From Psammoneis japonica (Eukaryota), in the NCBI GenBank assembly GCA_008632985.1, contig QPGO01000058.1, positions 434,001 to 458,315 of the forward strand: a DNA stretch of 24,315 nt, read 5' to 3'. A program made the position numbers and the translations under genes. Shown here piece by piece: positions 1 to 24,315 of this stretch. Every line of letters begins with the position of its first letter. Positions within the stretch are counted from its first letter, which is position 1. Under the pieces are notes generated by a model. That model did not search any database and was not told the DNA's origin. It saw only the letters and a program-made list of their open reading frames with translations.

Positions 1-2950
1 TTGTCAGCCATGAGCATGTTGAGTTGATGTGTTGAAATTCATGAGATGATTTGAAAGCTTGTTGAAGCAGGAAGCTCCTCACATGCCTTGTGGAAATGCA
101 TTGTAAAAAAAGGGCAGACTGTGACTGTGTTGTGGAGAGTGGCAATTGTTGGAAGGGATGTTTGCGCATTGGTCACTCCCTCCATTTTGAAAGTGTCATT
201 GACCCTGAGCCATGACCCTTGCTGCTTGAGAAGTTGCAACAGGCACAAGGCAATGAGACTTTTTTCTGTGTTGTCTCTGCCACCAGTTTGTCTGAGCTCC
301 TTTTGTGGATTTGGTGCATGTCTGCATCTTTTTGTGGCTGAATGCATTGGAACAACAGACTCAAGACAATGGCGCAAAAGTTGTCAAGCAGAAATGATGG
401 AACAAATGCTCACACACCGCTGCAACCACACATGCACTGCACTTGACAAGCGCCATTGCAGCACACCAACAACAAGCTCAAACAAAGATTTGTGTTCTTG
501 AGAAATGAAATGAGCATGTCTTGAACAAGAGCAGCTGCAGTTGGCACAAGCCAGTGGCAAGCAAACTCTTTGTCTCAAGCAGAAAGTGGCTGAAATGTTG
601 GAGGATGTTCAGCAGCTGTTGTGAGAGGAACAAGAATGAGGTGAATTTTTGGAATGAATTGACAAGGCATGTGTGTCAGTGTTGATTTTGTTGTTGTTGT
701 TGTGTCTTTGCAGCATGCTCCATCTCAAGCAAAAAGCAATGGACATGTCAGAGGACTCTCAACAACCATTGTGAGTGAAAGAAACAAAAATGGGGGGAAT
801 TGTTGGAACAAGGCATGTGAGCAGCAGCACTTTGTTTTTCATTCTTGATGTTGTTGTGTCCCCCCTGGCAACACGCTTTTTCATCTCATTGCATTTCACA
901 GGGTGCAATGACATCTCAAGCAAAAAGTGATGGAAATGTGAGAGGACATTTAGCAGGAGCTTTGTGAGAGGAACAAGAGTGGAGCAAATTGTCAGAATGA
1001 CTTGAGGACAAGGCATGTGCAGCAGCGCTGTGAAGGAAAAGCAACAGAGCAAAAGTGTCCACACTCAGCCCTTTTTCCCAAAGTGCTCCCTCTGCACTGT
1101 TGCACACACTCTTCTTCTCCTTTGGAAATTCACAACTTTGTGCAAAGAAACAAGCTTGTCATGGAGAAGAATCCCTGCTCACTTTTCAAATGTGTCTGCT
1201 TGACATTGTGGAGCTGATCTTTGCTGATCAAACCAAGCTGTCTGCTGATGTCCAAGACCCTGATTTGCCTTTTTTATGCTTTGGATTGCAGCTGTCTGGC
1301 TTGCCATGAAAGAGGGAGGCAGGGGGGCAAGGTGCCATTTTGTTCCTGTCAAAGGTGAGTTGTGCAAAGAAAGCCACTGCCCCACAACCTGCAAGATTTG
1401 TGGGCTCTGCCACAAAGGAGACAACCTTGGCCATCACCTCATTGGCTGTCAGCCCATGGCTGTGTTGACTGTCTTTTGTGCCAACATGGCTGGCACTCTA
1501 ACTGCAGATGCTGAACTCTGGGCATTTCATCAAGGGGCGTGCTGGTGTCCTTTTGGGCTCTGAGGTCTTGCCATGATTCTCTGGATGCACACGGCTGGAG
1601 AGCTCAGCTCTCAAGCTGACAGACATTGCTGCATGCTCAACTGCATTGAGAACTGCTTTGTTGCTTTTGCCTTTTGAGCCACTCTTGCCATTGAAATCTC
1701 CAGCCTCTCTTGCACTCTTTTTCTGCCTTGCACAAATGCTTGTCACCATCGTTGCTGGCAAGAGAAGGTTGAGTCTCCTTTGAAGAGCCACGCAACAGCA
1801 TGCAGAGCATGTTCTTTTGCACATGTTGCCTCATGTCTTTTGCCATTCTTGCCTTTGCCACAACATTTGTGGCTCTTCTTGACAGCAAGGCCATGGTTGG
1901 TGCCTCAATTTTGTCATTTTCTTGGTTCTTCTGTGCATTGTCAGCATGCTTGAGGGTGCGCAAATTGCCTTTTTTGATGCTGCCAAAACAGAAAAGTTGG
2001 ATCATGAAGATGGATGTTTTGCCAAGTGGACCCATGACCTCCCAAGCAAGCTTGCAACTTTTCTTGACTCGTGGTTGGATGTCAGCTCCGTGCGGTGTCT
2101 TGTGTGTTCTTTGCCCCACTCATCACTTTGACCAAGATTGAGGAATCTCTGATTCTCTCCAGGGGCTCTTCACTGCTGGTTTGTTGCTTGGGACTCTGCT
2201 GTCACCATTTGTTCTCCATCTCCTGGCAGCTTCACATTTTGGCCTTCCCTGCTGCCTTCTTTTCCAACCCTCTCACCTGCGCTGGTCTCTGTTCCAGAGT
2301 CTGGGTCCTTGCTGCCAGCCACCTGCAAAGAGATTGCTGGTTTCAAGCACTGCAAGGCATGCACTGGAGCTGATGAGGAATGTGCTGCAAGAAAGATGGG
2401 TGACAACAACTTTGCCAGTTCACATCATCAGAGCTGGACACATTGCCAAGCACGCTGGTGCTTGAATTGGAGTCACACATTCTTGAAGAGATTGAGAAGC
2501 TCTAGAGGGAAATGGCTGTGCACAAGGCTGTTGTTGCAGAACTCTTGAGTGCTTTGGAGGTGCAAAAGCAGTGCTTGCTTGACAGCAAAGATGTCAAGGG
2601 TTCAGACTTGGCAGGCACTGATGAATTCCACGACAAAGCACAAACAACTCCACATGTCAACAAGCTTCCATGTCAACAAAGGTGTGAGGATGATCGATCA
2701 ACATTGTTCCTCTCATCTTCAGAGCAACCCAATTCATTTCATCAGCCCATGCGTGCCAACCTTGCACATGTCACATTGTGGATGAATGTCACTCGTGCAC
2801 TCTTGAAGAGATTGAGGAGCTCCAGAGGGAAATGGCTGCCCACAAGGCTGAAGTTGAAGAATGCTCACGTGCTTTGGAGGTGCAAAAGGCAGCAAGAGGG
2901 TTCGGACACAGCAGGCGAAGCACAAACGGTTCTACATTTCGCCGAGCTTC
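1..2950. repeat. Degenerate TpA- and CpG-depleted block (probable old repeat, transposon or relict gene region; family not identifiable)
   Basis: By eye about 5 TA and about 20 CG dinucleotides in 1-2900, with a strong excess of TG/CA. Normal composition resumes at ~2930-3100. It contains many overlapping Cys/His-rich ORFs with no recognisable domain. Confidence 0.65.
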
Positions 2951-3077
2951 CACATGAACAAAGAACTCATTAGTGAAGATGATTGATCAACATTGTTTCT
3001 CTTTCTTTCAGCCGCCCAATTCAACCACAGGTGGCAATCAGCCTGTGCCAACCTTGCACACATGCTACAGGTGGATG
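2481..3077 (+). repeat. Imperfect tandem duplication (~290-320 bp unit) with a relict coiled-coil-like reading frame
   Basis: tcttgaagagattgag..ctc.agagggaaatggctg..cacaaggctg at 2481 and 2801; gatgat.gatcaacattgtt at ~2690 and ~2978; gtgccaaccttgcaca at ~2753 and ~3045. The two copies translate as LEEIEKL*REMAVHKA and LEEIEELQREMAAHKA. Confidence 0.85.
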
Positions 3078-3504
3078 CCATTCCAACGTCGCCGAGCTTA
3101 CATTTGAGTTAAGACGACGGATCTAGCTATATCCCTTTTTCAGCCGCCTTGTTCAAGTTGAATTAATCTACCAACGGTCCATTGCTCCCAAGCTCGTACT
3201 GTACGTACTATCTGGCGAGTCCAACGACAAAGAAGAAAAAAGGTAAACACAGCACAATGATGCTGAAAGTTCGAAGCCTGCATATAAATTTATTTCCATT
3301 TCAAGCTACAGAAAGAAACGATACACTTCTTGGGAATCAACATCGTTGTCGCTTTGTTTGGGGCGTATCAGTGCAAATGATATCCGTCTGCCAACGCACA
3401 CTCTCGCTTATTCGGTATGAATAGGAATCAGATTTAGGTTGCAAAACAAGCAGTATCGGATCCGATCGAATCCAACAGCGTACCCCTTGATAGGCGGTAC
3501 ACAA

Positions 3505-4311
3505 CTATTGGAGCTTGCTAATCTTTTTGCTAGCCACGGACGAAACGATGGACGCCCAAAAGATCTCGGCACAGCTCAGTGCAAAGACTCTCCATTCAAG
3601 GGGAATGTTGTAAATCAGCACATTTGCAAAGGTCCAGACCTTGGCATTGTCCACAAGCAGACCTGGTACTTTTTGCTTTACAGTTTCAGGCATACTTCTC
3701 GGTAGATCTCCTCGCAACAGAGACGGGACTGGAATGTCCCACAGAGAATATACAATCGGGCAAGCGATGAATTGTTCCAACAAGATGCAAATGACGGTTC
3801 GTACAATCGCTTCATCGCTTCCTCCCCCGACAGCATCAAGAGTAGATAGCGCTTGTTGTGTTAATAAGGAAGCCCATCCATCCGCCATGTTGTACCAAGC
3901 TGCCCATATCAAACCACTACCGAGGCCCTTGATGATGAATCGGAGTGATCTGTTGGCATCGTAAAGGTCGTTCTTGTTGCTTTGCTCGTTGTTGTTTGCT
4001 GTCGATTGCGCAGCCAGATCCCCAATACCTGAAAACATTCCAAACGTTGCAGATTGGGTTACTAGTGGATAAGACGATACGAGATACTGATAATCCTGTG
4101 CGAGATCGGCCAGTGATGATGCGTACAACGGATCAGCACGGTGGGAAAGCACGGCATTTTGATTTTTCGTAAAAGCGGGCTTAACGTGACTCCATTTTGA
4201 TATCGAAGGCTTCTTCGTCGAAGCTGGGGTGCTTGTAAATGCCGACACGGATACAAGAGCGGTGATGAAGGCCGCAAAGAAGGTGAGGGAGCGTGATGTG
4301 ATGTTCGTCAT
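3505..4311 (-). CDS. Mpv17/PMP22 family membrane protein with probable bipartite plastid-targeting presequence
   Basis: Motifs YPLVTQSATFG..SGIGDLAAQ, D.NRSLRF, EQFIACP and KVWTFANVLIYNIPLEWRV match the Mpv17/PMP22 pattern. First ATG is at 4311. The hydrophobic signal peptide ends VSA-F, followed by an S/T/K-rich transit-like stretch. Confidence 0.85.
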   Translation of the reverse strand: MTNITSRSLTFFAAFITALVSVSAFTSTPASTKKPSISKWSHVKPAFTKNQNAVLSHRADPLYASSLADLAQDYQYLVSSYPLVTQSATFGMFSGIGDLAAQSTANNNEQSNKNDLYDANRSLRFIIKGLGSGLIWAAWYNMADGWASLLTQQALSTLDAVGGGSDEAIVRTVICILLEQFIACPIVYSLWDIPVPSLLRGDLPRSMPETVKQKVPGLLVDNAKVWTFANVLIYNIPLEWRVFALSCAEIFWASIVSSVASKKISKLQ

Positions 4312-5541
4312 TGCCGCCAACAAAATGCCTTTTTCTGCTGAAGACTTCTCAATTTTTTAGCGTTCGCATCGTCGCGCGCAACTGTATGTGGCGCAATGCA
4401 CGTTCCCGTAGAAGTGTGTAGAAACATACTGATGTATAGATTTACGTACAGGCGTCGTACAAAGAATCCCACGCAAACGTCATCATGATGTCGAAATGAC
4501 GAAGGCACAATCTGCGTCACGAAAACCCGGAAGTTTTATGCCTGTTTTTCTCAACGGAAATGTTTTACACTGAACAGATAATAGCGATCATTCTTATAAT
4601 CAATTTACATGTGTTAATTGTTATGAATTTATTTGATCGGAATAAACTTATGTTGCTTTGTGACGTGGTCAACGCATGTCACACCGATCTCTTTGGCCGA
4701 TAGTAAATTATGGAGTTACGACTAGCACAATGTGAACTGTAAAAAACGTCCCGAACACCCGTATCGCATTTTTTGGAAAACAATAATTAATGATAACGGT
4801 TTTTAGCAAATAATTAGGGCATTTTTACAGATGTAACCCATACAATTTGTACTCAAAAATCGATACTTGCAACACAATTAGAAGATTTTTTGAATGTTTC
4901 CTATTCAAATTGGAACTCAAATTTTGATATTACTTTTACAACTCCGACAGCTTCATAATCAATAAACAAGTTCGAATGTTTTATTAAAAGACGTGGCCGG
5001 CGTTTCGGTCCATTTTGGCGGCTCCGACATTTGAATTTACTTAACGCCAGACATTTCTATAGGACATCAGTTCTTTGAGCCATAAGTACGTAGACTGGTA
5101 CAAATTCTACAGCATGAGTCATGTGCAGTCATTTTACATACCAATCATTCAGACATTAACTATATATACAAATACAAAATATCCAGTTCGTTATGGTCTA
5201 TTTTGCACATTGTGCTAGTCGTAGCCTCATATGAAACTATTTGGCGTGGCAGATGACCACCTGTTTTCGAGCTGTTTTTCCATCAAAGAGAGCTTTTCCC
5301 AGCTTTAACGATTGCATTCTTACAAAGCAAATATTTGGCAAGGAAAGAGGAAAGTGTCGGTATCGTTGTGGGTCATAACCAAGTGATCTCATCAGCCAAA
5401 GTCCGCAAATATCAACAAGAATCGAAATCGTCGTCGTATTCCTCATTGGGTACTGCTGAAGTCAACAGCCAAATCTTCGGCATTCTTGCTCTGCTACTTG
5501 CACACCAAACTTATTTCACTACGCGCACCACAGTCACCACC

Positions 5542-6213
5542 ATGCCCCCAAGCAATTTTGAAATCGAAGAGGCTCTCGCTGCACCTCACGACGAGCTTGC
5601 TGCACTTGGCAGTCCTAAAGGGTTTCCAGATCCGCTGGTTCCGATTCAATCCGAGCTTGATATTACATCAAAGGAGATTGAGGAATGTTTGACTGCATCG
5701 ATACCCGACGATCATGTCTTTCTCGAAATGGAAACTACAATGACTGAACCAACCATGGAAGAGAGTGTTATCTCCGAATGGGACGCTGCCTCTGATAATG
5801 TACAAATTGTCACACCCATTGTTTCAACACCCCCAAGACGATCACCAAAAGCCCAGAAACGCAGAGTCTCCTTTGCCTCTTTGCATGTTCGCGAATACTC
5901 ACAGGTCCTAGGCGACCATCCATGCTGCTCCTACGGACCTCCGGTGTCTTTGGGTTGGGATTACAATGTCATGGACAGTGTTTCTTTGGAAACGTATGAA
6001 GCAACGAGACCTCGTCGGCGAACACGTCAGCAGTTGAGAATGACATTCCACGAAAGACGATCCGTTCTCTTGTCGCATTCGGACGGTGACATGCGACGTG
6101 CTCAACGAAAGATTTATCGAGAGAGGCCCATGAACGAAAAGAGACAAAAGCTTTTCTTTCAACCCACACCTCCGCCACCACCACCTCACATGTTTATGCG
6201 AGCAACCGAGTAA
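5542..6213 (+). CDS. Uncharacterised protein of the stramenopile/diatom RVxF-'REY..LGDHP..GPPVSLGW.Y' family
   Basis: ATG at 5542 inside ORF 5335-6213. An acidic N-terminus is followed by KRRVSF...VREYSQVLGDHPCCSYGPPVSLGWDY...YEATRPRRR, a motif recurrent in diatom hypothetical proteins. Confidence 0.8.
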   Translation: MPPSNFEIEEALAAPHDELAALGSPKGFPDPLVPIQSELDITSKEIEECLTASIPDDHVFLEMETTMTEPTMEESVISEWDAASDNVQIVTPIVSTPPRRSPKAQKRRVSFASLHVREYSQVLGDHPCCSYGPPVSLGWDYNVMDSVSLETYEATRPRRRTRQQLRMTFHERRSVLLSHSDGDMRRAQRKIYRERPMNEKRQKLFFQPTPPPPPPHMFMRATE

Positions 6214-6377
6214 GAAATGGAAATTCATAATAATGATGATGGCCTCATGCTAGAGCGATGATTTTTGATTAATAAGAACCGAGCTAACAGTGTTAATAAG
6301 CCAACGATGTTTATACATGCCCCTCCTCGCAGCTAGCGTTTAGATCATCTACATCAGTAAATTGCACAAGATCATGG

Positions 6378-7169
6378 TCATATGATGCCTTCCTTGCGCA
6401 ATAGACCCGTATAAAGTGCAGCATCTGAATCGATTGGTTGACTAACTTGTATCTGTACAACTTGTCGTGTTGCTTCATCCCATACGCCTGTTCCCTCCAC
6501 TTGACACAACGCCACCTCGTGATCTCCCGCTGGAGTTGTGGACAAGAGTCGAAGCAGGACGTAGGAAGCGCAATTTGGAAGCAAATCAAGCGACTCTAAC
6601 ACTCTGCTTCGAGTTTTGTAATGCAAAGGGATTAGAAATCCAGCATCAATGCTGCTGCGGCGAGATACATAGACTACTTACTTGCCGTTTTGTGAAAGGA
6701 ACGACTCCTGCCCTTTCGCGTTGTCAGAGCGATGCTTGAACCATTCATATCCCAGCTTCGCACAATCCTTTCGTTTCGATACTCCTTCTTGATATCCACT
6801 TTGTTTCCCTAAAATAGGAACCAAATCCTTTTGTTTTGGAGTCAAGAGTTGCAACACTCCGAAACCAGACTCGTTCATGGATTGATGTGTTAGTGTGTTG
6901 TAGTACAAGGACACAACCCACAATTTTGGTGGCTCGACAGAAACCGGCGTTGCAGATGTCACAATGTTCATGGATGTTTCCTTTTCCACTGTATCTGGAG
7001 AGGACGAAACTATAGGGCATGCCAAGGACCACACCGGCATGGATATCGGAGGGGGCGGCGGAATCTTGTTGCCCGCCGCAAATGCCGGAAAACGTGGATT
7101 GTGCCCTCTACCTTCTGCTTCAATTATCCCAGTGACGACAAGAACGAGAAAATACGCCAGATTTCGCAT
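6378..7169 (-). CDS. Flavin reductase-like (FMN-binding split barrel) protein; 2 exons (7169-6682, 6603-6378)
   Basis: Exon 1 has PVWSLA..TSMNIVTSATPVS..LLTPKQKDLVPILGKQSG. Intron 6681-6604 (78 bp, GTAAGT...GCAG, branch-like TTCTAAT) joins it in frame to exon 2, which has AGDHEVALCQV and LYTGLLRKEGII*. The N-terminus is signal-like. Confidence 0.8.
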
Positions 7170-7381
7170 GACCCTGCTGTTGTCTCTGACAAACTATCTT
7201 GGAGCAGGCGATCTTGGTGTCTGTAATTACCTTCCCGCGTTGTCGCCCTCATCGTCGAAACGAAAACGTTGATGGCTTGATGGCAACCGATGACCACTTG
7301 ACGGCCGCATGGCAGACAGATAGATGCCATTGCGACGGACCGACGCCGGCATCGACGAATTGATAGATAGAGTGACTCTCA

Positions 7382-7397
7382 CTCTAGGGCCCTAGAG
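7382..7397. repeat. Perfect 16-bp palindrome CTCTAGGGCCCTAGAG in an intergenic region
   Basis: Read directly. Flanked by agagtgactctcactct and a further ctctctagac at ~7431. Confidence 0.8.
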
Positions 7398-7534
7398 CAC
7401 TCGAAATCGAAAGCGCTGCCTTCAAGCCTTCTCTCTAGACAAAATCAACCCCATCACCTCCCGCATCTATTATCTGTATCCCTATGACTGATATAACGTC
7501 TACAGATGCAATTTCTTTCCCCATTATTGCGACC

Positions 7535-10399: not shown

Positions 10400-13300
10400 A
10401 TGACTTGGTGACAGTCCGACTTTGTCAGCACGACTGCCAGTTTGCCAGTTGCTGCCCGCACAACAAAGTCGCATTTCTCCCACAAAAAACACTGATTCCT
10501 TCAAAGCCACCACATCAAAAAAAAACACAGCCACCAGGGCACCAACTGTTCCTCAAAACTCAGACCCTGAAGATGACATCAGATCTGAAAAAGAGAAAAA
10601 TGGCATCCAAAGCAGCAAGGAGCTGCCAAGCAAGCTCCTTTGTCCACCTGCTGCTTGGACTTACAGCAATCAATGGGTGGCACCATCCTGATGGCCACAG
10701 ATGATGATGAATTCAAGCCCCCAAGAGTCCCATCAAAGACAATGATCCTGTGGTGTTGCCAACTCAGAGTGTGACTCTGATTGCATTGACTCCAGCCCTG
10801 CAGTCATCCACCCCTTCTTCCCAAAATAAGCAACCCTTTTGATGTCATGGGTTTCAAGTTTCAAGGGAAGCTGGTCCAAGCAAGCCAAAGTGGATGAGTG
10901 CATTTCTGGGATGGAGAAGAGGTTTGTGCTTGAGAGCCACACACAAACAAAAAGAAGCAATCTTTCCTCTCTCCTGGCTGCGATCTTCATCAGAGAGCAC
11001 GGCACCTTCTGTTGCTCAGGTGTGCTGTCATTTTTTAAAATGATTGCAACAATTTTGGGCTGAGTTTTGTAGCCGCACCCACAAAACCAACACTGTTCAA
11101 ATGTTGCTCAATTGTCAAGTGCAAGCAACAAAACAAATGAGACAGCACATTCATTCATTTTGCATTGAGCACCCCACAAAAGACATCTTTGACCCAAATG
11201 AAGCATGGTGCAATGTTCTCCATTCCCCCCAACACAACCAGCTGTGATTAAATTTGCACATGCTCTCACTCAGCAAGCTTCAAACCCTTTTCCCTCTCTC
11301 AACATGCCAACCATGTGGTGCACACACCCACTCATGCTGCCTCTTTGGCTCACACGGCTCATTTGGGTTTTTTCCACTCATGCCACCCCCCAGAAGCCCC
11401 AAATTCAGTGCCTCTCTTGCATCGCCACTAATTTCTGCAAAGTTTGCATCACCCAAAGCTGTGCATTGTTTTTTGACAGTCTTGCTGCTGGTGCACAAAA
11501 CTCCAGAGGTGGCCAGTTCATGTGAGTTTCTGCTCACACTGCCTCCACACACTGCTCTGCCACTTCACTCTCTTGCACCCACTCATTTTTTTGCAGAATT
11601 TTACACAATGTGATGTTTTGCACACTTTTCAACTTTCTTGCCACTTGCACAAAACTTTGCACAATTTGTGCCACCCACTTGTTATTTTGCCAGCTCATGT
11701 TTGTGCAGTTTTCTGCACACACAAATTTGCAAGGACAAAACACTTGCTGTGCAAGGCAGGCCTGCACAACAGTCATGATGTGTGGTGCAAATTCTGAGAT
11801 GTTAATGTTGCTTGTGAAAGACTGGGCTGCCAGCCTTGGCACACCACCATCTCCTTTTTTTTATGTCACAAAACAGCCAGCAAACACTTGACAATCAAAC
11901 ATTTTGCTTGCCAACAAATTTGCCAGCATGAAAAATTGCAAATCAGAAGAAGAAGTGTGGCTGGTGGTGCAAGCAGCTAACACATGTGTGTCCACACCAT
12001 TGCACCAGCTGTTTGGTGACACAGCTGGTGTCAAAGCTGAAATCACTCCTTTTTGCATGTGCAAGGTTGAAAATGAACAGCAATGGATGAGCTGATGCAC
12101 AATGTTCTGAGCAACCCATGCACTGCTTTTTTCTGTGCACAAAACAAAAAACCTTCCCCCCTGCTTTTCTTGCTGACAGCTTGCGCAGTGCTCTCTCTGC
12201 TGTGTTGTCATCTGCAAAAAGGCTTTGTGCATGTTGGTGCTGAGGTTGCACAAGGATTGTGGTGGCGCGTGCTTCAGGCAATTGTTCTTTGAAGAGCATC
12301 TCTCACACCACACACATTTTGTGCACCCAGGTGCACATGCCACAATGTTGTCACCAATGTTTTGGCTTTTTGGAAATTGAATTTCAAAATTTTGAAAATT
12401 GCACTCTGCACAGAAGCAGCAACAAAATGTTTTGTTCAGGTTGGCACTGATGATGTGTGACATGAACCCTGCTCTTGTGCACATGTTGGCAAAGGTCAGC
12501 AACATCTCACACAACATGCACACGCACGCAAGTCTTGGCAGCAAAAAGGCAGGTGTGGTCAACAGTGGGAGACAGCCACTGTGCGGAAGCAAGCAACCCT
12601 CTGTGCAAGATGCTGAATTTGGGGATGACAGATTTTTCTATGTGCTGACAGTGAAAGCAGCAAGGGAGCTGGCATGAAGACTAAAAAACATGGTGATTTG
12701 TCCTCCTTGCTGGGCAAAAGCTGTCAAACAGAGAGAATTTCAGGGGAGAAGTGCTGGAAGAGCTTCAGTTTGATGCAGAGAAGAAGTGCTCCCAACCAAA
12801 GAGTGTGCAGAGATTGCGGAGCTCACCTGCAATGTGCTTTCACCTGAAATGGCAGTGCTGGTGGCTGGCAGCAGAGTTGAAGCCCCCCCCCCCCCCACCG
12901 TCAACTCCAAAGCAGCATTTAAGTGAGAGAGGGCATCAGCAGTGGGGAGGCTGGTGTGGGAACAAATTCTCACAAGAGCACCTGCTCTGGCAATGGTTGC
13001 ACAAATGACCATCACAATGCTCTCTGCCAACTGGGCAGTGTCGAATGCCAGCCAATGGGTTTTCCTTGTCTCATCAACTTTGCCACAAAAACTTTGAATG
13101 AAAAGGCTTTGCTTTCACAAGAGCTCTGGTTGTTTTTTGATGCCTTCAGCATTGTTGTTGCAACCACTTCACACAGTTGTGGGGAGAAATCTGTGCACAT
13201 GAGTCTCCTCCTCTTGGAGCAGACCATGTTGCTGGATGGAGGCTGAACACCCAGCTGGAAGAGGAGGAAATGCAGTTGAGAGAATTGTCATTGTTCCCAA

Positions 13301-13740
13301 GTCTCTTGGAGAAAAACCATGGATGTGCTTTGCCAACATGTTTTGCAGCCATCAATGATGGTTGATGACAAACAATGCACATGCAGGTCATGACTTCCTC
13401 TGTCATCTTGGCTCAGATTTGATGATCTGTGCTTCCAGTGCCTGTTCATGGGGCATGTTTGCTGTGACAAGTTTGGGGATCCCATTCAATGATCAGGCAG
13501 ATGAAGCAGATCCAATGACATCCTCCATGGGAGGCACCTTCCAGGTTGCACCACCAATGGCCACCACAGGGAGTCAAGTCATTGCAAGGCAGATGATCGT
13601 TGATGATGCTGGGTTGGCCGGTGGCATTGGCAACTCTTCTTCTGTGAGAGCTGCTGCTTGTCATAATCTCATTTCTGGAGTGCTTTTTGTTTCTGCAGAG
13701 TTTGATTTCATTGAGCAGTGGTGCTTTTTCTCAACCTGTC
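10400..13740. repeat. Second TpA- and CpG-depleted degenerate block
   Basis: Roughly a dozen TA in ~3.3 kb by eye and few CG. TG/CA-rich, with fuzzy boundaries. Includes a tgcacaa/ttttgca-rich low-complexity part (~11420-11800) and a C14 run (12883-12896). Confidence 0.65.
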
Positions 13741-14481: not shown

Positions 14482-17277
14482 CTACCGGTACGAGTCTGTA
14501 ACGTTCGAGGCTTGAGTGTGTTTCGTAGGGATTGTTTTTCCACGGACTCTCCTGATCTTCCGCCCCTCTGTGTCCAAGATCAGCTCAACCAGTTTAGACT
14601 TTCGGGTGACTTGGCGAGGGGCATCATCCACTATTGACCTGTTACTTGTTTCTGGCAGTAACGGGACGTCGATTCTGGTGTCCGTTGCAAACAACAGCAG
14701 CTCCTTTCCACCTTTATAGAAGATCTTCACTTTCAACAAAGATTCCTTTCCTTCTCTTTCCGCATCACGCCGTTGACTGAAGTCACCTCTCACCTTTTTC
14801 TTTAGATATAATCCTGATGGCAACAAAACTGGATCATCCCTGACAATGGCTTTTCCATTTCTCCTTAGTTGTACCTTGACTAGCACGGGAACCTCTACAT
14901 ATACGTATTTGTGGAGTTCCATTGGAGGGCCCAAATAAGGCATTGAATAAGGCTGAAAGTCGGTTGTTCCGTAGTTTGCTGCACCATATTGCTGATAGTC
15001 GTTTCCCCGGCAATAGTTGAAGAGATAATTTGGTGCAATGTCGAATGGACGGCAATAAGATGGCATGGATTTCGTGAGCGCCTGGAAGGTACAACAGGTA
15101 AAGCGCGTGTTCGCTGCCCCTAAAGGATCACGAAGGGCTCGCATAAGGGTTGACCCAGAAACAAAGTAATTGCCGTCCTTGCAACCTGGGACACATGCCA
15201 CCTTTTCATACCCCGTCGGTGTGTTTTCAATGAGATCAGACCATTTAGAACAGTCTCTTGTGGCGTCACAGTTGGGGTCTTGATCGACGCCAGTGCCATA
15301 AGTGTATTCATCACCTAGTTCGAATAGCGAATGACCAAGCTCGTGAACAGCAACACGCAAGCCTTCTTCATGCAACGACATCACAGCGATATTGTCGTCC
15401 GTATATCCTGCTCCGCCGTACTTCAAACTGTTATGTATCACCAAAGTTTGCAGATTTGATCCAACAGAAAAACATTTGCTTGAGAGGCTCTCCGTCATTT
15501 CAACGTCACAACATAACAATCGGTCTATATCCAGACAACCAAAGTCGCAGAACGATCCAACGGGCTTGATAGGATCAACACGGAACACATTGAGTTGATG
15601 CACGCCCCAGTCAAACATTGGATACTGCCGGAAGAACCGATACGTCCTTTTGACTTGTTGACGCCAAGTCTCAAGAGTTGTGGAGTTAAACGCTGAACCC
15701 ACAAACACGATATTGATTGAATTTTTGTCAAACTCCTTTCCATATTTGTGCTTCACGGGGTAGCATTCCGATGAGGCCATGCAAACACCGTTTCGACAGG
15801 TATTCGAAATACAGTCAGCATTGTTTAAACACGCTATCCCAGTTTCCCGTTTTCCGTCGGGCGCTGGAACTTTTGGCTTGTCCACGGCTTCACCAATGTC
15901 TTTGGACACTTTGGAAGGCGTTGTTGTTGGCAGTGGTGAAGGGGAGGGCGATGGAGGAGGGTTTGGTGATTGTGATGGCATTGGTGTAAGGACTGCCGTT
16001 GGTGGAGATGTCAGTTTTATTGTAGGAGTTGTAGTGGGCCTGTCGGATGGCAACCTTGTGGGTGTAGGTGTTGGGAAGGGTGAGGGTCTCGACGTTGGAG
16101 GCACTGTTGATTCTATTGTAGGAGTTGTAGTGGGTCTCGCGGACGGAGACCGAGTAGGTCTAGGCGTTGGGAACGGTGAGGTTCTTGGCGTTGGAGAAAC
16201 CGTTGGTGAATCGGTTGGAAATCGGGTAAGTGTAAGTGTTGGGAACGGCGAGGGTCTTGATGTTGGAGACAACGTCGGTGAAGCGGTTGGATAAGATGTT
16301 GGTACTTTGGTAGGTGGTGGTGTCGGGTTCGCCGTCCGCGGAGTTGGTGCCCTTGTTCTGGTATTGCAGCACACGTAATGATAATATTTATCTCTCCGAT
16401 ACAAAGTATATGTCCCTGTCTTTCGTGGGAAAGCGAATTCGCTGGAGCTGCATGTCATGGGCTCGGAGCGACCATCTGCCCAACAGTCCTTCTGTCTCCA
16501 TCTGGGAGAGGGGCTTGAGCATGCCTTGTCAGTACATTCCTGAAGGACAGAACTCTTGATACCAGGGGGGCAACATGCATAGTAATAATATGTGTTCGAT
16601 TCCGGATCTTCAAAGGAGGCCACCTTCGAAAGGTCTTGCACCTCATAACCAGCGGCACATGAAAATGGCAGCCACGCATTTGCCCCCAGGGCAAAGCACA
16701 TGGTCTCCTCTCCAACTCCGCTCGGAGTGAGACACTTGCTTTCATCACACGTACTACCAGCCGGTGGTATGACGATGTTATTGATGCTGTTTTTGCAGCA
16801 CACGTAATGTGAGAACAGCCCACCCTCTGACCAAATATAGGCTCCTGTCTTACGGGGGGAAGCATAGACATTAGAGTCACACGGCATCTCTGGTTCATAG
16901 GGACCATTTGCCCAGCAATCAGTTCCTCCCATTCCGTCGGGGCTCGAGCATGCTTGATCCGTGCATTGTTCTTGTGGGATGATTGGGCTCGTTGCTCCAA
17001 CCGGGCAGCATGTGAAGTATCGGTAGGTCTCTCCCTCTACCAAATCCTCAATGGTAGCTACGCTAGAGAGGTCTCGAACTTCGTACCCATAATCGCATAC
17101 AAATGGATCTCGCGTGTTGGGTCCCAGGGCCCAGCAATCAAATTCAAAAATTGTGCCGGGGCTACGGCACTTGCTATCGTCGCACACATCTCGCAAAGCC
17201 TCGTTTGTGTGCGGGTAGTAAACAAGCAGCGAGAACAAAGAAAAGACAACCGCGGGTTTTATCCTCAATTTTTTCAT
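14482..17277 (-). CDS. Secreted modular metallopeptidase: signal peptide, four Cys-rich repeats, Pro/Thr/Ser stalk, small Cys module, peptidase M64-like domain
   Basis: 931-aa intronless ORF with a hydrophobic N-terminus. INIVFVGSAF, YGGAG, VAVHELGHSLFELGDEY and a Met-turn-like STLMR match the M64 (IgA peptidase) pattern. Confidence 0.85.
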   Translation of the reverse strand: MKKLRIKPAVVFSLFSLLVYYPHTNEALRDVCDDSKCRSPGTIFEFDCWALGPNTRDPFVCDYGYEVRDLSSVATIEDLVEGETYRYFTCCPVGATSPIIPQEQCTDQACSSPDGMGGTDCWANGPYEPEMPCDSNVYASPRKTGAYIWSEGGLFSHYVCCKNSINNIVIPPAGSTCDESKCLTPSGVGEETMCFALGANAWLPFSCAAGYEVQDLSKVASFEDPESNTYYYYACCPPGIKSSVLQECTDKACSSPSPRWRQKDCWADGRSEPMTCSSSEFAFPRKTGTYTLYRRDKYYHYVCCNTRTRAPTPRTANPTPPPTKVPTSYPTASPTLSPTSRPSPFPTLTLTRFPTDSPTVSPTPRTSPFPTPRPTRSPSARPTTTPTIESTVPPTSRPSPFPTPTPTRLPSDRPTTTPTIKLTSPPTAVLTPMPSQSPNPPPSPSPSPLPTTTPSKVSKDIGEAVDKPKVPAPDGKRETGIACLNNADCISNTCRNGVCMASSECYPVKHKYGKEFDKNSINIVFVGSAFNSTTLETWRQQVKRTYRFFRQYPMFDWGVHQLNVFRVDPIKPVGSFCDFGCLDIDRLLCCDVEMTESLSSKCFSVGSNLQTLVIHNSLKYGGAGYTDDNIAVMSLHEEGLRVAVHELGHSLFELGDEYTYGTGVDQDPNCDATRDCSKWSDLIENTPTGYEKVACVPGCKDGNYFVSGSTLMRALRDPLGAANTRFTCCTFQALTKSMPSYCRPFDIAPNYLFNYCRGNDYQQYGAANYGTTDFQPYSMPYLGPPMELHKYVYVEVPVLVKVQLRRNGKAIVRDDPVLLPSGLYLKKKVRGDFSQRRDAEREGKESLLKVKIFYKGGKELLLFATDTRIDVPLLPETSNRSIVDDAPRQVTRKSKLVELILDTEGRKIRRVRGKTIPTKHTQASNVTDSYR
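15905..16345 (-). repeat. Coding repeats of the mucin-like PT/PS stalk (72-96 bp imperfect units)
   Basis: tgtaggagttgtagtggg at 16021 and 16117. gttgggaa.gg.gagg at ~16070, ~16167 and ~16238. Protein units resemble PTSRPSPFPTPTPTR. Confidence 0.8.
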
Positions 17278-18420: not shown

Positions 18421-20403
18421 TCAAGCTGCGTGGTTGTGCCCAAGAGTTTGGCCTTTCCTTTCGTGCGATACTCGTGGTAGAGATATCGTGCGTTCCAGTA
18501 TAGCTTGATCCTCGTCGTCAATCTCCGCATCCCTGACGGTTTCGTATGCAGTCACATCATTAATACGCCAACCAGTCATGTTACCTACACTATGCTTGCC
18601 ACGAAAACACACATACAGTAACGCCGCCACGGATAGATACAATGCCAACAGGAGCAACCCCAATACCTCAAGCTGCGCAATCAAGTACCAGTTTATGTAA
18701 ATCCCAAGACACGGGAGATATGGCACCAATGGTGTCTTGAAGGAGACGGCTTCATGATCTGGGAGATGATGTCCACGCATCATGGAGCCTCCAAAATTAA
18801 CGCTCTTGGGGAAGGCCGACGCAATGTAGAACACCATTGAACCACACGCGCAACAAATGATGATGGAGAGTGCAGCCCACACAGCGGAAACATCGTAGAG
18901 GTGACTCATGAAGAGACCCGAGACAAAGCAAAGGAGATTGTACATCGAGAGAACAGGTCCAAGACGACGGTGCAACTGGGGTGCATGTCGCGGAGCACAA
19001 GCCGGCGCCTCGCATCTCATCAGTACCAAACACGTGTTTGTCATGGAGAACGCAAAAAGAATGCCTGACGAGATTAGATCGTCCAAGTATCCAAACGGAA
19101 CAAAGGTTGCAACAATTGTCATTGTGATTCCTGAGATAAGAACACCTGAGCGCAAGTTCCCCGATTCATCAACGTTCCCAAAAACATCGGGGAGGAGCCC
19201 ATCTTGAGCCAGTGCCAACTGCAGCCGAGGCTGCGCCATGAGCGAAATCAAAACAACGACAGGAAATGTAAGGACCTCTCCAGCCTGCAAATATGAAGAG
19301 ATGTGGCCACAGTGAGTCGCACTCGATACGATGAACAAAGAAAGCACAGCGTGCAAAAGATTGAATCAGCACGAACCCACCGCTGTTATTTGAGCCGCCC
19401 ACTCAATTCCATTGTACCGAAAAGCTGCAGGAAATGGACTCGTTTCACTTAGACTATGGTATGGTTGCATCCCAGTCAGCGCCAAAGCAGCTGAAACGTA
19501 AAGTAAGGTTACAATCCCGAGTGTGAGCAAAACAGCGCGGGGCATATCACGTTGTGGGTGAAGAGCTTCGCCTGCAATGCAGCACACTTCATCAAAACCA
19601 ATGTACCCAAAGAAGGACGATGTGGCACCACGCAACACCCCACTCGCGCCAAAAGGAGCAAAAGGTATCAAGTTGGCTGTGTCTGATAACCAAATACCTC
19701 CTACCAGCATAAAGATGACAAGGGCAACCTTGGTAACTGTGAAGAAATTTGTAACGCGTTTGCTCTCTTGGATGCCATCGAGAAGTAGCAGTACAGAGGC
19801 AGCGGATATTAGAGAAGCCATGGGGTTGATTACACCGCCCCCAGGCTTCAAATAAGCCGTGATCCATTCCATTTTGAAGTCTTGTACGAGCCACTCTGTG
19901 ACCTTATCGCCCCAGCTCCGCGCAACAGCTGCACCAGAAACTGCGTATTCCAACGTGAGACAAGCCGCAGCCAAAACAGCAGGTAGCTCACCCATCCCAA
20001 CATAGGCGTAAACATACGTGGAACCGGCACCAGGTATCTGCCCTGCCAATTCTGCATAGGAAACGCCGCTACAACAACCTGCCAATCCGGCAATTGCAAA
20101 AGACAAAGCAGTGGCAGGTCCAGCGAAGTTGTGCGCGATAAATCCAGATAGTACAAATATCCCTGAGCCAATCGTCCCCCCAACGCCAACCGAAACAAGA
20201 TCCCATAAAGTCAAGTGCCGCTTGACATTGCCAACACTCCCTTCTAGCGCTTGCTCACGTTGTTCCTGCTGCAGGACGACCCACAAGGGCTTTCTTATTA
20301 GCCACCAAGGCTCATTTTTGTGGCCTACAGCATCCATGCCGGAAGATAGGTTTTCCTCATTCTCGATTGAAACCTCTGCACTCATCTGCTTCTCTCTTCG
20401 CAT
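18421..20403 (-). CDS. Cationic amino acid transporter (APC superfamily, CAT/SLC7-like); 2 exons (20403-19381, 19284-18421)
   Basis: LTLWDLVSVGVGGTIGSGIFVL, AGPA, SYAELA..PGAGSTYVY, FFGYIGFDEV, MAQPRL and C-terminal FKTPLVPYLPCLGIYINWYL. A phase-0 intron at 19380-19285 (96 bp, GT...GCAG) joins AAQITA|AGEVLTFP. Confidence 0.93.
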
Positions 20404-20549
20404 TCAAGTTGTCCCGAGACGTTCTCTTTCTCTTTCTTGGCTGCCGGCACTTTTTTGCGACATTAAACATGCTCATTCATCATGGCGTTGTCGATCGCGC
20501 GAAGGCTCGAAAATTTCGCGACAGAAACGACGACTCGTTCGACTCTATC

Positions 20550-23500
20550 TGACCGGCCCGCCTTTCTACCTGGCAACCTTTCTACGAAGAAGCCATCCGG
20601 GCTGCAGCCCCTGATATCGACTCCCTCCGCGATCTCATCGCCTCGTGGAACCCACCGAAGCCCGTGCCCCGCTAACTTGCCCCTTCTGCTCCTGGTCCCC
20701 TCCTTCCATTGATGCATCATCCCTTCCTGCTTCTGTGCGCAGCCATCTTCGCCAGGAGCATCCCCGCCTCTCGCTTTCTCATGCACCTGCGTCCTTCTTC
20801 GACACCGCTGGTTTGCATGTCTGCAGGCATTGCAATCATAGCCAATGCACCTGCCTGTCTACCACCCACCTTCGCAATCACTTGCAGAACAAGCACTTCG
20901 CTCCTCGCTCTTCCCTCAACACTGACATTGTTCTCTCGTCCTTCCACAATCTAGGTGACTGGGGCCCCTCGCTGCAATGGCTCCATGCTCTTGCACTCGA
21001 GCCTCCGCCTTTCCGAGCTTCCTGCCACCGCAAGCTCTCGTCCTCCGCCCGCAAGGAACTCTGCTCTGCTCTTCATCATGTGACAAGCTGGGCACTGGCC
21101 GCCTCCCAGCCTCTCTCTGACCCCTCCCACCTCATTCCTACGTGGCAACGTGACTCCACTCCCTTCTGGAAGCTGCTCTTACTCTTTGAAGCTCTCATTC
21201 TTGCTCCTGTCCCGCCATGCTCCAAGTTTGGCCCCACCATTGCCTCCCGCTTGTCCCTCTTCTGCCGTGGCTGCATTCGCCAACTCTGCCACGAAGCCCA
21301 CTCCCACACGCCACGCCTCTCCTCATCTTCCCCCGACTTTTCTGCTTCCACCTGTTGCCACTCCGCTCAAGTTTGCACCGACGAAGATGACTTTCACTCG
21401 GCCTGCTCCAAGCTCACCTCTGCGCTTCCTGTTGCTGCCGTCACTCCTGAGCGCCTTCCTGCCATCCTCAAGCTCTACCCTCCTCGCCTGCACCCCTCCG
21501 ACCTGCCCAATCCTCCTTCAACTCGCTCGGCCTCCTCCCTTCACAACGAGCCTGTTGAGCTCTCCTCCGATGCTCTTCTTTCCGCTCTCTCCAAATGTAA
21601 GCCTGGGACTGCTGCCGGTGTTTTTGCTGATTCTACCGACCTTTTCAAGTCCTGCGCCCTCTGTTCTGCCAAAACCCCAACAGGTGTTGCTCAACGCCCC
21701 TGCTTGTCATCCTTTCGTGAGCTTGTCCTTCTTCTGCTCCATGGCTCCATTCCTTCTTCCGTCCATTCCTCATTTGCTTCGAACCACTTTGTCGCTTTGC
21801 ACAAAGATGCCAGCGACCTCAACAAGCTTCACCCCATTGGCATCGGCACTGCTCTTCGTCGCATCGCCGGCTCCGTCGTCATGACTCTCTTTGGTTCTGC
21901 ATTTACCGAACACCTCCTCCCAGATGGCCAATTTGGCATTGGTGTCAAAGGTGGCCTCGATTATCTCGTGCACTCTGCTCTTGCCAACATTGAACGACAT
22001 CTTTCCTCTGCCGACTCTGCCAAGGCTCTTCTTCTTCTTGACCTCGTCAACATGTTCAACGAAGCATCTCGAGATGCCTGTCGACACGTTCTCATTTCCA
22101 CCCCTGCCTTTCATCCTCTGCTTCCCTTTTTTGACCTTCTATGTCAAAGTTCCAACACATGTTGGCATCGCCGACCCGATTCTTCCTGGGGCTCCTTTCT
22201 TCAAGAAGAGGGATTTGCCCAAGGATGCCCTCTCGGCCCTGTCTTCGCCAGCCCAGTCCTCTCTCTGGTTCTTCGTCCGATTAACCAAGAACTTCAAGAA
22301 CGTATCCCTGGCCATTCCTCTGTCTCAGTTGGCTCCTACATTGACGATGCTCACGCTTTCCTTCCCCATTCTGTGCTCCCATGGTTCCTTGAACGCTTCT
22401 CCGCCCTCGGTGCCCCCTGCGGAATCTCCCTCAACCTCCGTAAAACCAAGATCCTCACCTCCATTGCCGGTGTTAGCCCCATCCCTGCTCTTCCCCCTTC
22501 CCGCGCCGATTCTCTCCGTGCTGCACTTTCCTTCTTAAACCCTGCCAATGACCCCTCTTACAACCCCGAACTCACCTCTGGTGTTCACTTCCTTGGACAG
22601 CCCCTCGGCTCCCACGACTTCGCCACCTCTTTCCTTTCCGACACCTCCTCTACTCTCTCCGACAAAGTTGACATGCTTCTCACCCGTCTCCATGACAAAC
22701 AAACCCAGGCTCAACTCTTCAAGCACTGTTTTGTTCCATCCTCTGCTCACCTCCTTGGAGCTGACTTCCACTGCAACTTCGACCCCGACAATCCTTCCGA
22801 CCCCTTTCTCTGGACCTCTCCGTTTCAAGATTTCCTCCTCACCGTTGCTCACCGCTTTCTACACTGCGTCACTTCCTTCGCCGCTCCTTTTCCCGACCAC
22901 TCTATTGCCATCGCCTTCCTTCCTGCCTCCTTAGGCGGGTTTGGTCTCCGGGACCCAACAGCCACCGCCATTCCTTCCTTCTTGGTGTCGCTTCTCCGCT
23001 CGTTCCGCTTTGCTTCGCACGGTGTCAGCCCACCATCTGGCGCTTCTGTTTCCCTTCCGCGCTGCTTTCGGCTCTCCCTGTCTTCCTGGTCCAACCCTCG
23101 CTCTTCCCTGCGACTCCATGCGCTCTTCCGCCATTGTGCTCCCGTTCTGGCTTCCGCCTCTACCCTTTCCTCTTCTTCCTTGGCTGCCCTGGTTAAATCG
23201 GCCACTCTCCCCGGCCTGGCCCGTCGTCTCTACCACGAACATCAGCAACAAGCAGTGACCTCCATCCTTGCTAACTCATCTTACGACGTGCAATCTTCAC
23301 TCCCTTCATTGCCATCTCCGCTTACAACCTTCCTCTTCATTCCTTCTCTCGTCGCTTCCAAGCTCCCGCCTTTCTTTCGGACGCCTGCGCTGTCGCCGCC
23401 CTTCGTAAGCTTCGTCTCCCCATCCTTCCTCCGTCCCTTGTCAACACTCCCTGTCCCTGTGGCCATGCCATTCTGGACGCCTGTGGTGATCATGCCTTTT

Positions 23501-24315
23501 CTTGCCGCCGTGCTCACAAGTCCAAGCTTTCCAATGGTCTCCGTGACACTGTTTTCATCCTAGCCCAAACTTTGGGTCCTCTTGCAGAGTTCTGTCGATC
23601 CCCCAATGACGTTCATCTTGAACCCATCAACCTGCTCCCCACCCGCCCGCCTTCTCCGTCCCGCCGATGTCGGCATTTCTATCCCCCTCCCGCCTCCCTT
23701 TCCGCTCCCTCCCACCATCATTGCATTGCAGTGGACGTCACCGTCCCTCAAGCTTCCTCTCGCCCTCCTCCAGGTCTGCCTGCCCCCTCTTCTCCTATCT
23801 TAACTGAGGCACACCACTCAAGCGCGAGATTGAAGTTTCTTGGCCCCTCTACTTCCTCTGCCGATGGATCCCTTGTTGTTTCTTCGCTAACAACAATGGC
23901 ATCTTCCTGCTCCCCTTCACTGTCGATCACCTGGTGGTCTCGGCTGCTTTGCCCACCGCTTGCTCTTTGGTTCTACATCCCCCCCCGTCTGCTCTCAGCC
24001 CAAGCCACCCTGGTCCTCTTCCTCTGACCTTCGTCACTCCGATGCCTCCTACTCCGCCTTCCTCTACGCTTTATCGTCTCCGTCTGCAATCCTTCCCTCT
24101 GCTGACTCCGCATGGCGTCGCCTGTCCGCCGATCGCTTTGGAAGCACCTACCGTACAGCCACCCCATCCCAGTGGGCCACCCAAACTCTTGGCTACAACG
24201 TTGTTCTTCACCTTTCTACGCACATCCTCCGATTCACCTCCTCTCTCCCTGCCCCCTCCTCACCCATACCTTCCACAAAACGCCCTTCGTCTTGCGTCCA
24301 TCGACCCTTTACTCT
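20550..24315 (+). mobile_element. Non-LTR retrotransposon with restriction-like endonuclease (CRE-like clade), probably 5'-truncated, frameshifted, incomplete at the window end
   Basis: N-terminal C2H2-type fingers, then an RT domain. After a frameshift (~23330): RKLRLPI, CPCG..LDACGDHAFSC knuckle, RPADVGI, IAVDVTV, LLPFTVDH, TPSQWATQTLG. The strand is strongly C/T-rich. The clade is assigned from motifs only. Confidence 0.88.
20645..23563 (+). pseudogene. Reverse transcriptase ORF of the non-LTR element (largest open segment; last ~75 codons out of frame)
   Basis: CPFC..HLRQEH, CRHC..HLQNKH, FVALHK..KLHPIGIGTALRR, QFGIGVKGG, LLLLDLVNMFN, QEEGFAQGCPLGP, YIDD, GISLNLRKT, FLGQPLG, LPASLGGFGL. 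Confidence 0.88.

Follow-up and report, generated by a model that had tools for sequence, protein, structure and literature searches.

Loss of TA dinucleotides and tyrosine in a multi-copy R2-like retrotransposon family: a candidate footprint of a TpA-directed mutation process

Why would a reverse transcriptase reading frame of 972 codons contain hardly any tyrosine while its CG dinucleotides remain abundant? This question is raised by an element at the right-hand end of the 24,315-nucleotide stretch of eukaryotic DNA analysed here (the window, whose positions are used throughout), an R2-like retrotransposon without long terminal repeats (non-LTR). A first-pass annotation, made from the letters alone, had described it as a retrotransposon caught mid-mutation: the dinucleotide TA (TpA) would be lost by A-to-G change on either strand, ahead of CpG decay, and the resulting replacement of Tyr by Cys or His would disable elements. 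Context-specific hypermutation of invading DNA is familiar as fungal repeat-induced point mutation (RIP) and as APOBEC or ADAR editing in animals. TpA-specific A:T to G:C hypermutation has so far been reported only in one 2026 preprint, for integrated viruses of one alga (10.64898/2026.01.13.699255). We estimate at roughly 70% the probability that the element in the window is a dead copy in a multi-copy R2-like family exposed to a TpA-directed mutation process. The evidence comes from residue and codon usage, from differences between copies, from a sister family and from two tracts elsewhere in the window.

Loss of TA and tyrosine in the element

The 972-amino-acid (aa) open reading frame (ORF) has a GTG start and lies at 20645..23563 on the + strand, its final ~75 aa being outside the true frame. 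It contains six Tyr, at aa 278, 440, 565, 639, 863 and 880. The first-pass annotation was thus right in noticing that the first ~275 aa have none, and also in that the catalytic YIDD motif (22337-22348, +) has survived, its Tyr at aa 565 being still encoded by TAC. Tyr makes up 0.6% of the ORF versus 1.7–4.0% in 26 aligned homologues, and Cys 3.1% versus 1.0–2.2%; none of 84 proteins examined falls below 1.2% Tyr, and for 225 relatives the range is 1.2–4.7%. From 20645 to 23950 the observed/expected ratio (o/e) is 0.26 for TA and 0.78 for CG, and CG is indeed abundant, as had been claimed (0.78–0.80, compared with 0.25–0.30 for TA). The ORF has 30 TA where 122 are expected from position-specific base frequencies, with a depletion in every codon phase (6 observed to 48.8 expected, 8 to 29.7 and 16 to 43.9). 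The sense strand of the element is extremely rich in C and T (A 0.15, C 0.39, G 0.17, T 0.29).

Over the aligned coding part 81 elements were scored, namely the window copy and 80 loci (L001–L080). The window copy has the second lowest TA o/e (0.29), the highest Cys content (3.4% of aligned residues) and 1.0% Tyr. A single locus, L014, has a lower TA o/e (0.07), with 0% Tyr and 3.0% Cys, and these two stand apart from the other 79 elements, in which TA o/e is 0.44–0.82 and Tyr 1.5–4.3%. TA-free stretches, sought in 500-bp windows along the 80 loci, were found only in L014 (13 windows) and L004 (1 window). Synonymous sites, whose comparison the first-pass annotation had proposed, tell the same story: Leu and Val codons of the window copy comprise 9 NTA and 37 NTG, and the resulting NTA/(NTA+NTG) of 0.20 compares with 0.39–0.86 in 13 relatives other than L014, even though A and G are equally frequent at its third positions (0.10 and 0.11).

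Tyr is not merely rare but replaced in a particular way. At the 23 columns with at least 40% Tyr in homologues, the window copy, read through its frames, has Tyr at five, Cys at five, His at six, Phe at five and other residues at two. Cys at Tyr columns (5/23) is far less frequent in 65 other loci pooled after 14 near-duplicates were dropped (25/1215; Fisher p = 1.5e-4), and it was counted at 16/1392 in 128 other cluster representatives. The first-pass annotation had singled out 13 motifs in which Cys or His stood where an aromatic residue was plausible, and had asked whether homologues carry Cys or His there as well. For nine of the 13 the suspicion stood. The flagged residue lies on a majority-Tyr column in six (RQLC, 12/20; RPC, 23/26; SNH, 23/26; FDLLC, 18/26; CWH, 13/26; ADFH, 13/26) and on a plurality-Tyr column in three (FKSC, 10/26; LPH, 11/26; LDAC, 9/25). 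Four motifs failed: relatives have L or W at RASCH, L at GAPC (18/26) and S or P at GLGC, and LFKH is ambiguous (H 6, Y 6). In three places (the C of CWHRR, that of LFKHCF and the second H in SNHFVALHK) Cys or His is conserved and does not count as a replacement. Among 21 single-step replacements at columns at least 70% conserved and upstream of the frameshifts, seven are of the kind that loss of TA produces (Y>C; Y>H; L>P twice, by way of CTA>CCA; and, following a codon that ends in T, T>A twice and N>D once) and four of the kind that CpG loss produces.

Other copies of the same genome were available as contig pieces of sequencing run X1. Along the element these pieces reveal 299 variable places, of which 266 are transitions; the pair and orientation counts given below rest on the best-supported 40 of these 299 rows. 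Eighteen of the 40 form nine adjacent pairs at which the window copy has CA and nearly all other contigs TG (+ strand, 21299, 21307, 21442, 21785, 21911, 22254, 22769, 22963 and 23031, spanning 21299..23032). At five of the nine sites the homologues imply an ancestral TA (Tyr 23/26, Tyr 13/26, Thr 19/24, Thr 9/20 and Leu 19/26), the two Thr residues requiring TA since they are preceded by T; a CG ancestor fits one of the remaining sites, and three are ambiguous. A hypermutable TA predicts both resolutions, and therefore CA in one lineage and TG in another at the same ancestral TA. The alignment to other genomic copies, suggested in the first-pass annotation, thus returned TG/CA differences at sites whose homologue residues require TA. 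In 12 pairs of related elements used as a control, CA/TG double differences numbered only 0–6 per pair. Concerted TG>CA double editing was considered and rejected: the nine doubles outnumber the singles (4 TG>CG, 0 TG>TA), and five of the nine sites need an ancestral TA.

The window copy itself is already dead on other grounds, because at least five frameshifts fall in its endonuclease domain (+ strand, at about 23335, frame 0 to 2; 23650, 2 to 0; 23685, 0 to 2; 23888, 2 to 1; 23931, 1 to 0), an invariant Arg has become His and further invariant residues are replaced. In the comparison with other genomic copies, one-base indels coincide with these frame changes, being located at 23327, 23355-7, 23375, 23650-1, 23681-2, 23887-9 and 23931. 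The Arg-to-His change is that of KLHPIG (21824-21841, +), just upstream of the reverse transcriptase domain. It had been read as KLRPIG altered by CG>CA, and this was borne out, as Arg is present in 26/26 homologues and the codon is CAC here and CGC in the other copies. The family is large. On the element, 900 contig pieces of run X1 align with 80–100% likeness, 214 of them at 99% or more, and summed contig depth rises from 54–61 in the flank (20300–20567) through 440 (20568–20701) to 1,700–7,500 beyond. Together the pieces and the depth, which is not a copy number, point to many copies. Runs X2 and X3 covered the flank only or nothing, and no conclusion rests on them.

Composition within the clade deserves a separate remark. 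Over the matched parts of L001–L080, the clade comprises two sense-strand composition classes, both G-poor: near relatives that are C/T-rich (A 0.17–0.22) and distant ones that are A/C-rich (A 0.27–0.39). In three C/T-rich pairs (L001/L012, L010/L043 and L005/L015), TA changeability is 0.42–0.57 versus 0.18–0.38 for other dinucleotides, about twice as high; the TA changes are mostly TA/CA differences, found in both directions and not polarised. A weaker version of the process at work in the window copy may be behind it.

Sister elements, TA-free tracts and competing explanations

The clearest case is the metagenomic locus L014 (1-3560), which is 75% identical over 3.5 kb to L008 (3782-7349), a relative with normal TA. 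At the 146 TA of L008, L014 keeps six and has CA at 56, TG at 49 and TC at 17; CA and TG together account for 105 of its 140 losses. Retention is 0.04 for TA, compared with 41–72% for every other dinucleotide, CG included (55%). With a CG o/e of 1.01 in L014, CG is untouched while TA is gone; TA loss can thus run to completion with CG intact. Translated, L014 offers 747 positions, with 0 Tyr and 24 Cys among them. Its 386-base flank has a TA o/e of 0.46 versus 0.07 inside the element. Both strands are hit about equally, the inferred changes being eight TA>TG and eight TA>CA in the window copy, and 49 and 56 in L014. The two outcomes are interspersed along L014, and strand-coordinated patches could be ruled out (57 runs versus 53.4 +/- 5.1 expected). 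A polymerase-eta-like WA/TW signature was likewise discarded, since between L008 and L014 AA is kept at 0.67 and TT at 0.50 versus 0.04 for TA.

Two further copies of the L014 family, P0169 and P0249, are 85–87% identical to L014, and P0169 retains three Tyr. Among these three copies, Cys versus His at the same Tyr sites is discordant in 8/15, 8/9 and 4/8 cases, from which it follows that the copies were hit independently after they had diverged. Cys versus His ranks first or second among the residue differences between them, and Leu/Pro is also among the most frequent. More widely, 5 of 141 new cluster representatives have less than 1% Tyr, all five with more than 2.5% Cys, and they belong to at least three lineages besides that of the window element. 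Three proteins from lineages other than those of the window element and L014 (P0152, P0228 and P0210), seen as protein sequence only, have at most 0.8% Tyr and 3.4–3.8% Cys.

The window also contains two unstranded tracts in which TA is nearly absent. Tract 1 (1..2800) runs off the left window end and has rho values of 0.03 for TA, 0.13 for CG and 1.81 for CA+TG. Tract 2 (10470..13700), between an ABC-ATPase gene and an M64-peptidase-like gene, has 0.07, 0.10 and 1.85. Both have sharp edges, consist of complex sequence and measure ~3 kb. CA/TG make up 96% of their pyrimidine-purine steps versus 60–62% in host DNA, and the total frequency of such steps is unchanged (o/e 0.94–0.98), which is what would be expected if only transitions had acted. 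In the element, TA still accounts for 6% and CG for 27% of these steps. The element thus looks like an earlier stage than the two tracts, in agreement with TA loss outpacing CpG decay. Host stretches of the window have a TA rho of 0.59–0.64 and a CG rho of 0.84–1.02, compared with a TA rho of 0.30 in the element and 0.03–0.07 in the tracts. In these window stretches and in the L014 flank, all of them small samples, host DNA is spared and the loss is restricted to foreign or mobile DNA. No Pfam family was found in eight tract ORFs (four of them from tract 1), nor a match of the tracts to the hidden Markov model of the element family, and a purine/pyrimidine-coded blastn of the tracts against the element and the 80 loci gave nothing above the shuffled control. 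Internally they are free of repeats apart from short, tandem-like units in tract 1.

Four independent lines, namely the between-copy CA/TG sites, the depletion of NTA, the L014 family and the two tracts, support the claim that TA is removed by a genuine substitution process, in which A>G occurs at TpA on either strand and runs ahead of CpG decay. What sequence comparison shows is that the loss is specific to TA, that it has two outcomes, that it keeps to the element and the tracts, and that copies were hit independently. In the mechanism that we propose, the A of TpA would be converted to G on either DNA strand, so that TA becomes TG or CA in roughly a coin toss per site. TAY codons for Tyr would then turn into TGY (Cys) or CAY (His), CTA for Leu into CTG or into CCA for Pro, and at NNT-ANN codon boundaries the change would alter the next residue. 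The process would be confined to mobile or foreign DNA, would hit copies independently and would be much faster than ordinary substitution. CpG decay to TG/CA would be a second, slower process, just begun in the element and complete in the two older tracts. Adenine deamination by an ADAT/TadA-like enzyme, which the preprint proposes for its alga, could be the chemistry behind it. That the process serves as genome defence we infer, as we do its timing relative to retrotransposition.

Several observations weigh against this explanation. The closest relatives are likewise A-poor and C/T-rich (A 0.17–0.22, TA o/e 0.43–0.62), so that part of the Tyr shortage is a trait of the clade and not the result of recent mutation. 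The nine CA/TG pairs are all oriented the same way, CA here and TG elsewhere (9:0, binomial p = 0.004), a bias for which a strand-symmetric process gives no reason. TG is common to almost all other copies at these sites and was therefore inherited from an element that kept multiplying; such shared, inherited losses fit poorly with a simple picture of elements mutated to death. For the window copy, the direction of change was read from distant homologues and from the 40 best-supported of the 299 variable places. A close unmutated relative of the element's own family was not found (best match 46% identity), and a search of protein fragments from the same genome gave four matches, at 43% identity or less. 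Finally, the preprint on Bigelowiella natans (Mettrop et al., bioRxiv 10.64898/2026.01.13.699255) defines clusters by a rho of at most 0.43 for TpA, together with one of at least 1.52 for CpA+TpG, over at least 3 kb; the element, at 0.30 and 1.27, is within the first limit and misses the second. Being caught mid-mutation is an apt description, but of the whole multi-copy family rather than of the window copy alone, as many of its TA losses are common to other copies. That the stripping of Tyr disables elements finds no support here: the majority of copies share Cys at a column with Tyr in 23/26 homologues and yet reached high copy number.

These shared losses could mean that editing is tied to the retrotransposition cycle and not to resident DNA, a possibility that we regard as unlikely but deserving of attention. 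An ADAR/ADAT-like deaminase would edit UpA in the sense RNA (TA>TG) and the first-strand cDNA or the RNA:DNA hybrid (TA>CA), and the changes would accumulate in the replicating lineage, filtered by selection. The confinement of the loss to the element would fit, and TG at the nine sites in most other copies looks as if derived from a master element. When the majority state is taken as ancestral, the private changes are T>C 18 and G>A 12 versus C>T 8 and A>G 2. This bias towards T>C and G>A in the sense strand (30 of the 40 best-supported rows, p = 2e-4; 21 of 31 events, p = 0.018) is the pattern expected of minus-strand cDNA deamination. Also in its favour, at columns at least 60% conserved the window copy still matches the consensus at 306/410 positions, compared with 318/410 for an intact relative. 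Against this, Tyr codons are no better protected than other TA (5/23 Tyr columns kept, for an overall TA o/e of about 0.25–0.3), and therefore no strong selective filter is apparent. Within the L014 family CA and TG arose about equally often and intermixed (56:49), and individual copies resolved shared sites differently; duplex DNA hit copy by copy would account for this at least equally well. No homology to retroelements was detected in the two TA/CG-free tracts, and the B. natans targets are, according to the preprint, single-copy integrated DNA viruses that mutate during vegetative growth and thus not by retrotransposition.

The other alternatives do away with a TA-directed process altogether. 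An A-poor, C/T-rich sense strand, combined with ordinary eukaryotic avoidance of TA over the long evolution of active elements, would be in line with the composition of the close relatives, with the strand-biased composition for which non-LTR elements are known (PMC7140322) and with a TA o/e of only 0.59–0.64 in the host DNA of the window. We judge it improbable, as the window copy is outside the range of 79 elements for both TA o/e and Tyr and has the most Cys of all 81, as NTA is depleted relative to NTG at equal third-position A and G, as Tyr conserved in 23/26 homologues gave way to Cys or His and not to the conservative Phe, and as paired CA/TG differences, rare in the controls, are common among the copies here. 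CpG decay, by which CGY for Arg becomes TGY for Cys or CAY for His, might underlie both the CA/TG differences and the Cys/His residues. It does operate to some extent: Arg has become His at three columns with at least 70% Arg, 9 of the 31 best-supported between-copy events are CG versus TG/CA, and one of the nine CA/TG pairs fits a CG ancestor. As a general explanation it is very improbable, and for the Tyr columns it is largely refuted, because these columns are Tyr and not Arg in relatives (Arg in 2/26 at the SNH site) and CG is far better kept than TA, both in the element and in L014. Least credible of all is a sequencing or assembly artefact, such as systematic base-calling errors at modified bases. 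The platforms of the window assembly and of runs X1–X3 are not on record, and the two tracts were read from the assembly; nevertheless, contigs of an independent run reproduce the flank without any difference and include hundreds of TA-poor family pieces of 80–100% likeness, and the same signature recurs in independent metagenome contigs and protein clusters.

The element and its neighbours in the window

The element, probably of the restriction-like-endonuclease type, occupies 20553..24315 on the + strand, truncated by the window, with its 3' end beyond it. Its 5' limit is approximate; a contig of run X1 is identical to the flank as far as 20552. Homology detected by tblastn with full-length relatives spans 20651 to 24292. 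The first-pass annotation, which gave 20645..23950, had therefore recognised the element correctly and made it too short, homology extending from about 20650 to the window end at 24315. Whole-length homologues of the protein, found in metagenomes and eukaryotic assemblies (38 matches, best 46% identity), measure 1,250–1,300 aa. The 972-aa ORF represents only part of the gene, since homology leaves its frame from about 23335.

Two N-terminal C2H2-type zinc-finger motifs were recognised by motif match in the translation (20678..20896, +; 20678-20761 and 20822-20896). Their Cys/His columns are conserved in the homologue consensus, and a Pfam search of the ORF did not find a zinc-finger family. 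The reverse transcriptase domain (21899..22600, +, aa 419-652) matches Pfam PF00078 with E 2.2e-7 and 31.2 bits, compared with a cut-off of 29.6. Three-frame translation against the homologue consensus located the C-terminal CCHC and restriction-like endonuclease region (23335..23935, +), with CCHC at 23452-23505 (frame 2), RPADVG at 23657-23674 (frame 0), AVDVT at 23728-23742 (frame 2) and PFTVDHL at 23913-23933 (frame 1), all on the + strand. The putative CCHC and the RPADVG...AIDVT nuclease-like motifs were recognised as sequence patterns, in shifted frames, and the consensus of the homologues preserves them; Pfam did not pick them up.

N-terminal fingers, a C-terminal CCHC and a PD-(D/E)xK-type endonuclease define the restriction-like-endonuclease group of non-LTR elements. 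Judged by motif patterns, the element would share with R2, CRE and NeSL types a single ORF with N-terminal C2H2 fingers, a central reverse transcriptase, a C-terminal CCHC and a PD..D..K-like nuclease motif. It differs in its marginal sequence similarity to solved R2 proteins, which a profile search of PDB detected with E 0.0017–0.0025 over ~100 reverse transcriptase residues only. By its predicted layout it may be called R2-like; the label CRE-like, used in the first-pass annotation, was not confirmed; it would imply a place beside CRE, SLACS and CZAR and insertion into spliced-leader genes. With regard to site-specific insertion, no flank was shared among loci and no Rfam family was found in the window.

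Between 20645 and 24315 (+), long ORFs exist in all three sense frames (244, 215, 151 and 128 aa besides the 972 aa). Long open frames are weak evidence of intactness here, as TA is rare and only TGA stops are common. Annotators should thus be warned that in TA-poor DNA, where TAA and TAG cannot occur, long open frames are partly a by-product.

The neighbouring genes are ordinary eukaryotic ones, encoding an amino-acid permease, an ABC ATPase, an M64-like peptidase, an Mpv17/PMP22 protein and a DcpS/HIT protein. A 931-aa host ORF (14482-17277, - strand) has a weak Peptidase_M64 match. Within it, on the minus strand, 15997-16291 carries internal tandem-like repeats of 69–79% identity. For the most part the ORF's database matches are due to a PT-repeat domain (PF04886), and the best ones, of repeat-domain kind, span no more than 21% of the query. 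The host is probably an organism other than B. natans, since a collection comprising NCBI, UniRef, EukProt and MMETSP, among others, yielded nothing close to the element or to this ORF.

Comparison with known systems

Literature searches on TA-loss hypermutation yielded nothing besides the B. natans preprint (10.64898/2026.01.13.699255). In mutation-accumulation lines of this alga, it reports, two regions of integrated viral DNA have a mutation rate ~1000-fold above that of the remaining genome; of their 231 mutations, 230 are A>G or T>C, all on TpA according to the authors, giving TpG or CpA. The genome has 124 TpA-poor, CpA+TpG-rich clusters, and its low-TpA coding sequences are enriched in reverse transcriptase, endonuclease-reverse transcriptase, DDE endonuclease and zinc-finger motifs. 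The authors propose adenine deamination by an ADAT2-like enzyme, acting as a defence. The process in the window is of the same kind: change is limited to TpA and leads to TpG or CpA, only foreign or mobile DNA is affected, and in the long term it leaves TpA-poor, CpA+TpG-rich blocks of at least 3 kb, whose rho thresholds both tracts pass (0.03/1.81 and 0.07/1.85). There are also differences. In B. natans the rate was measured de novo, whereas the A:T>G:C transitions at TpA are seen here by comparative evidence. The targets there are viral, transposons being only "potentially" included, whereas the target here is a multi-copy R2-like retrotransposon with documented Tyr>Cys/His replacement. Moreover, the tracts of the window have also lost CpG, a term that occurs 0 times in the preprint (10.64898/2026.01.13.699255).

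RIP of ascomycete fungi is likewise a context-specific transition hypermutation of repeated or foreign DNA that leaves missense-riddled coding sequence and a dinucleotide footprint. It consists of C>T at CpA, which raises TpA (RIPCAL, PMC2621366). Chemistry and footprint are the opposite of those described here, where A:T>G:C at TpA removes TpA. Fungal RIP could be ruled out on this ground, as TpA falls and CpA/TpG rise. PMC9998398 describes the DNMT4 of diatoms as a relative of fungal RID whose function is not known; it was not used as evidence. APOBEC3 and ADAR, which edit retroelements and viruses in animals, resemble the present case in that hypermutation of a deaminase type leaves its mark on copies of retroelements. 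With APOBEC, G>A is confined to the sense strand; ADAR has a loose neighbour preference and acts on the RNA strand. To our knowledge, ADAR is restricted to animals. What distinguishes the present footprint is a near-absolute TA specificity with both outcomes equal, as seen in L014. ADAR favours a 5' U, as remarked in the same preprint (10.64898/2026.01.13.699255).

Taken more broadly, TpA hyper-editing could be a widespread eukaryotic DNA-editing defence, present in the host of the window and also in those that carry three or more other lineages of the clade, seen in marine metagenomes. It would hit copies independently, could run as far as Tyr-free proteins and, in the host of the window, would be followed by or coupled to CpG erasure, leaving 3-kb "fossil" tracts. 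We put this forward tentatively, as a little short of an even bet. If true, tracts with CA/TG only would offer an easy way of tracing the system and its enzyme through the genomes of protists. Surveys for affected genomes and for the responsible deaminase could look for a Tyr-free, Cys/His-rich reverse transcriptase, for Cys/His dimorphism between copies and for such tracts. Compared with the systems known so far, sequence comparison supports an extension of TpA-targeted hypermutation to a retrotransposon family, and probably to other hosts. New here are the footprint on a retrotransposon family with independent outcomes copy by copy, its recurrence, in samples of different origin, across four or more lineages of a single element clade, and the co-occurrence of TA loss with complete CpG erasure.

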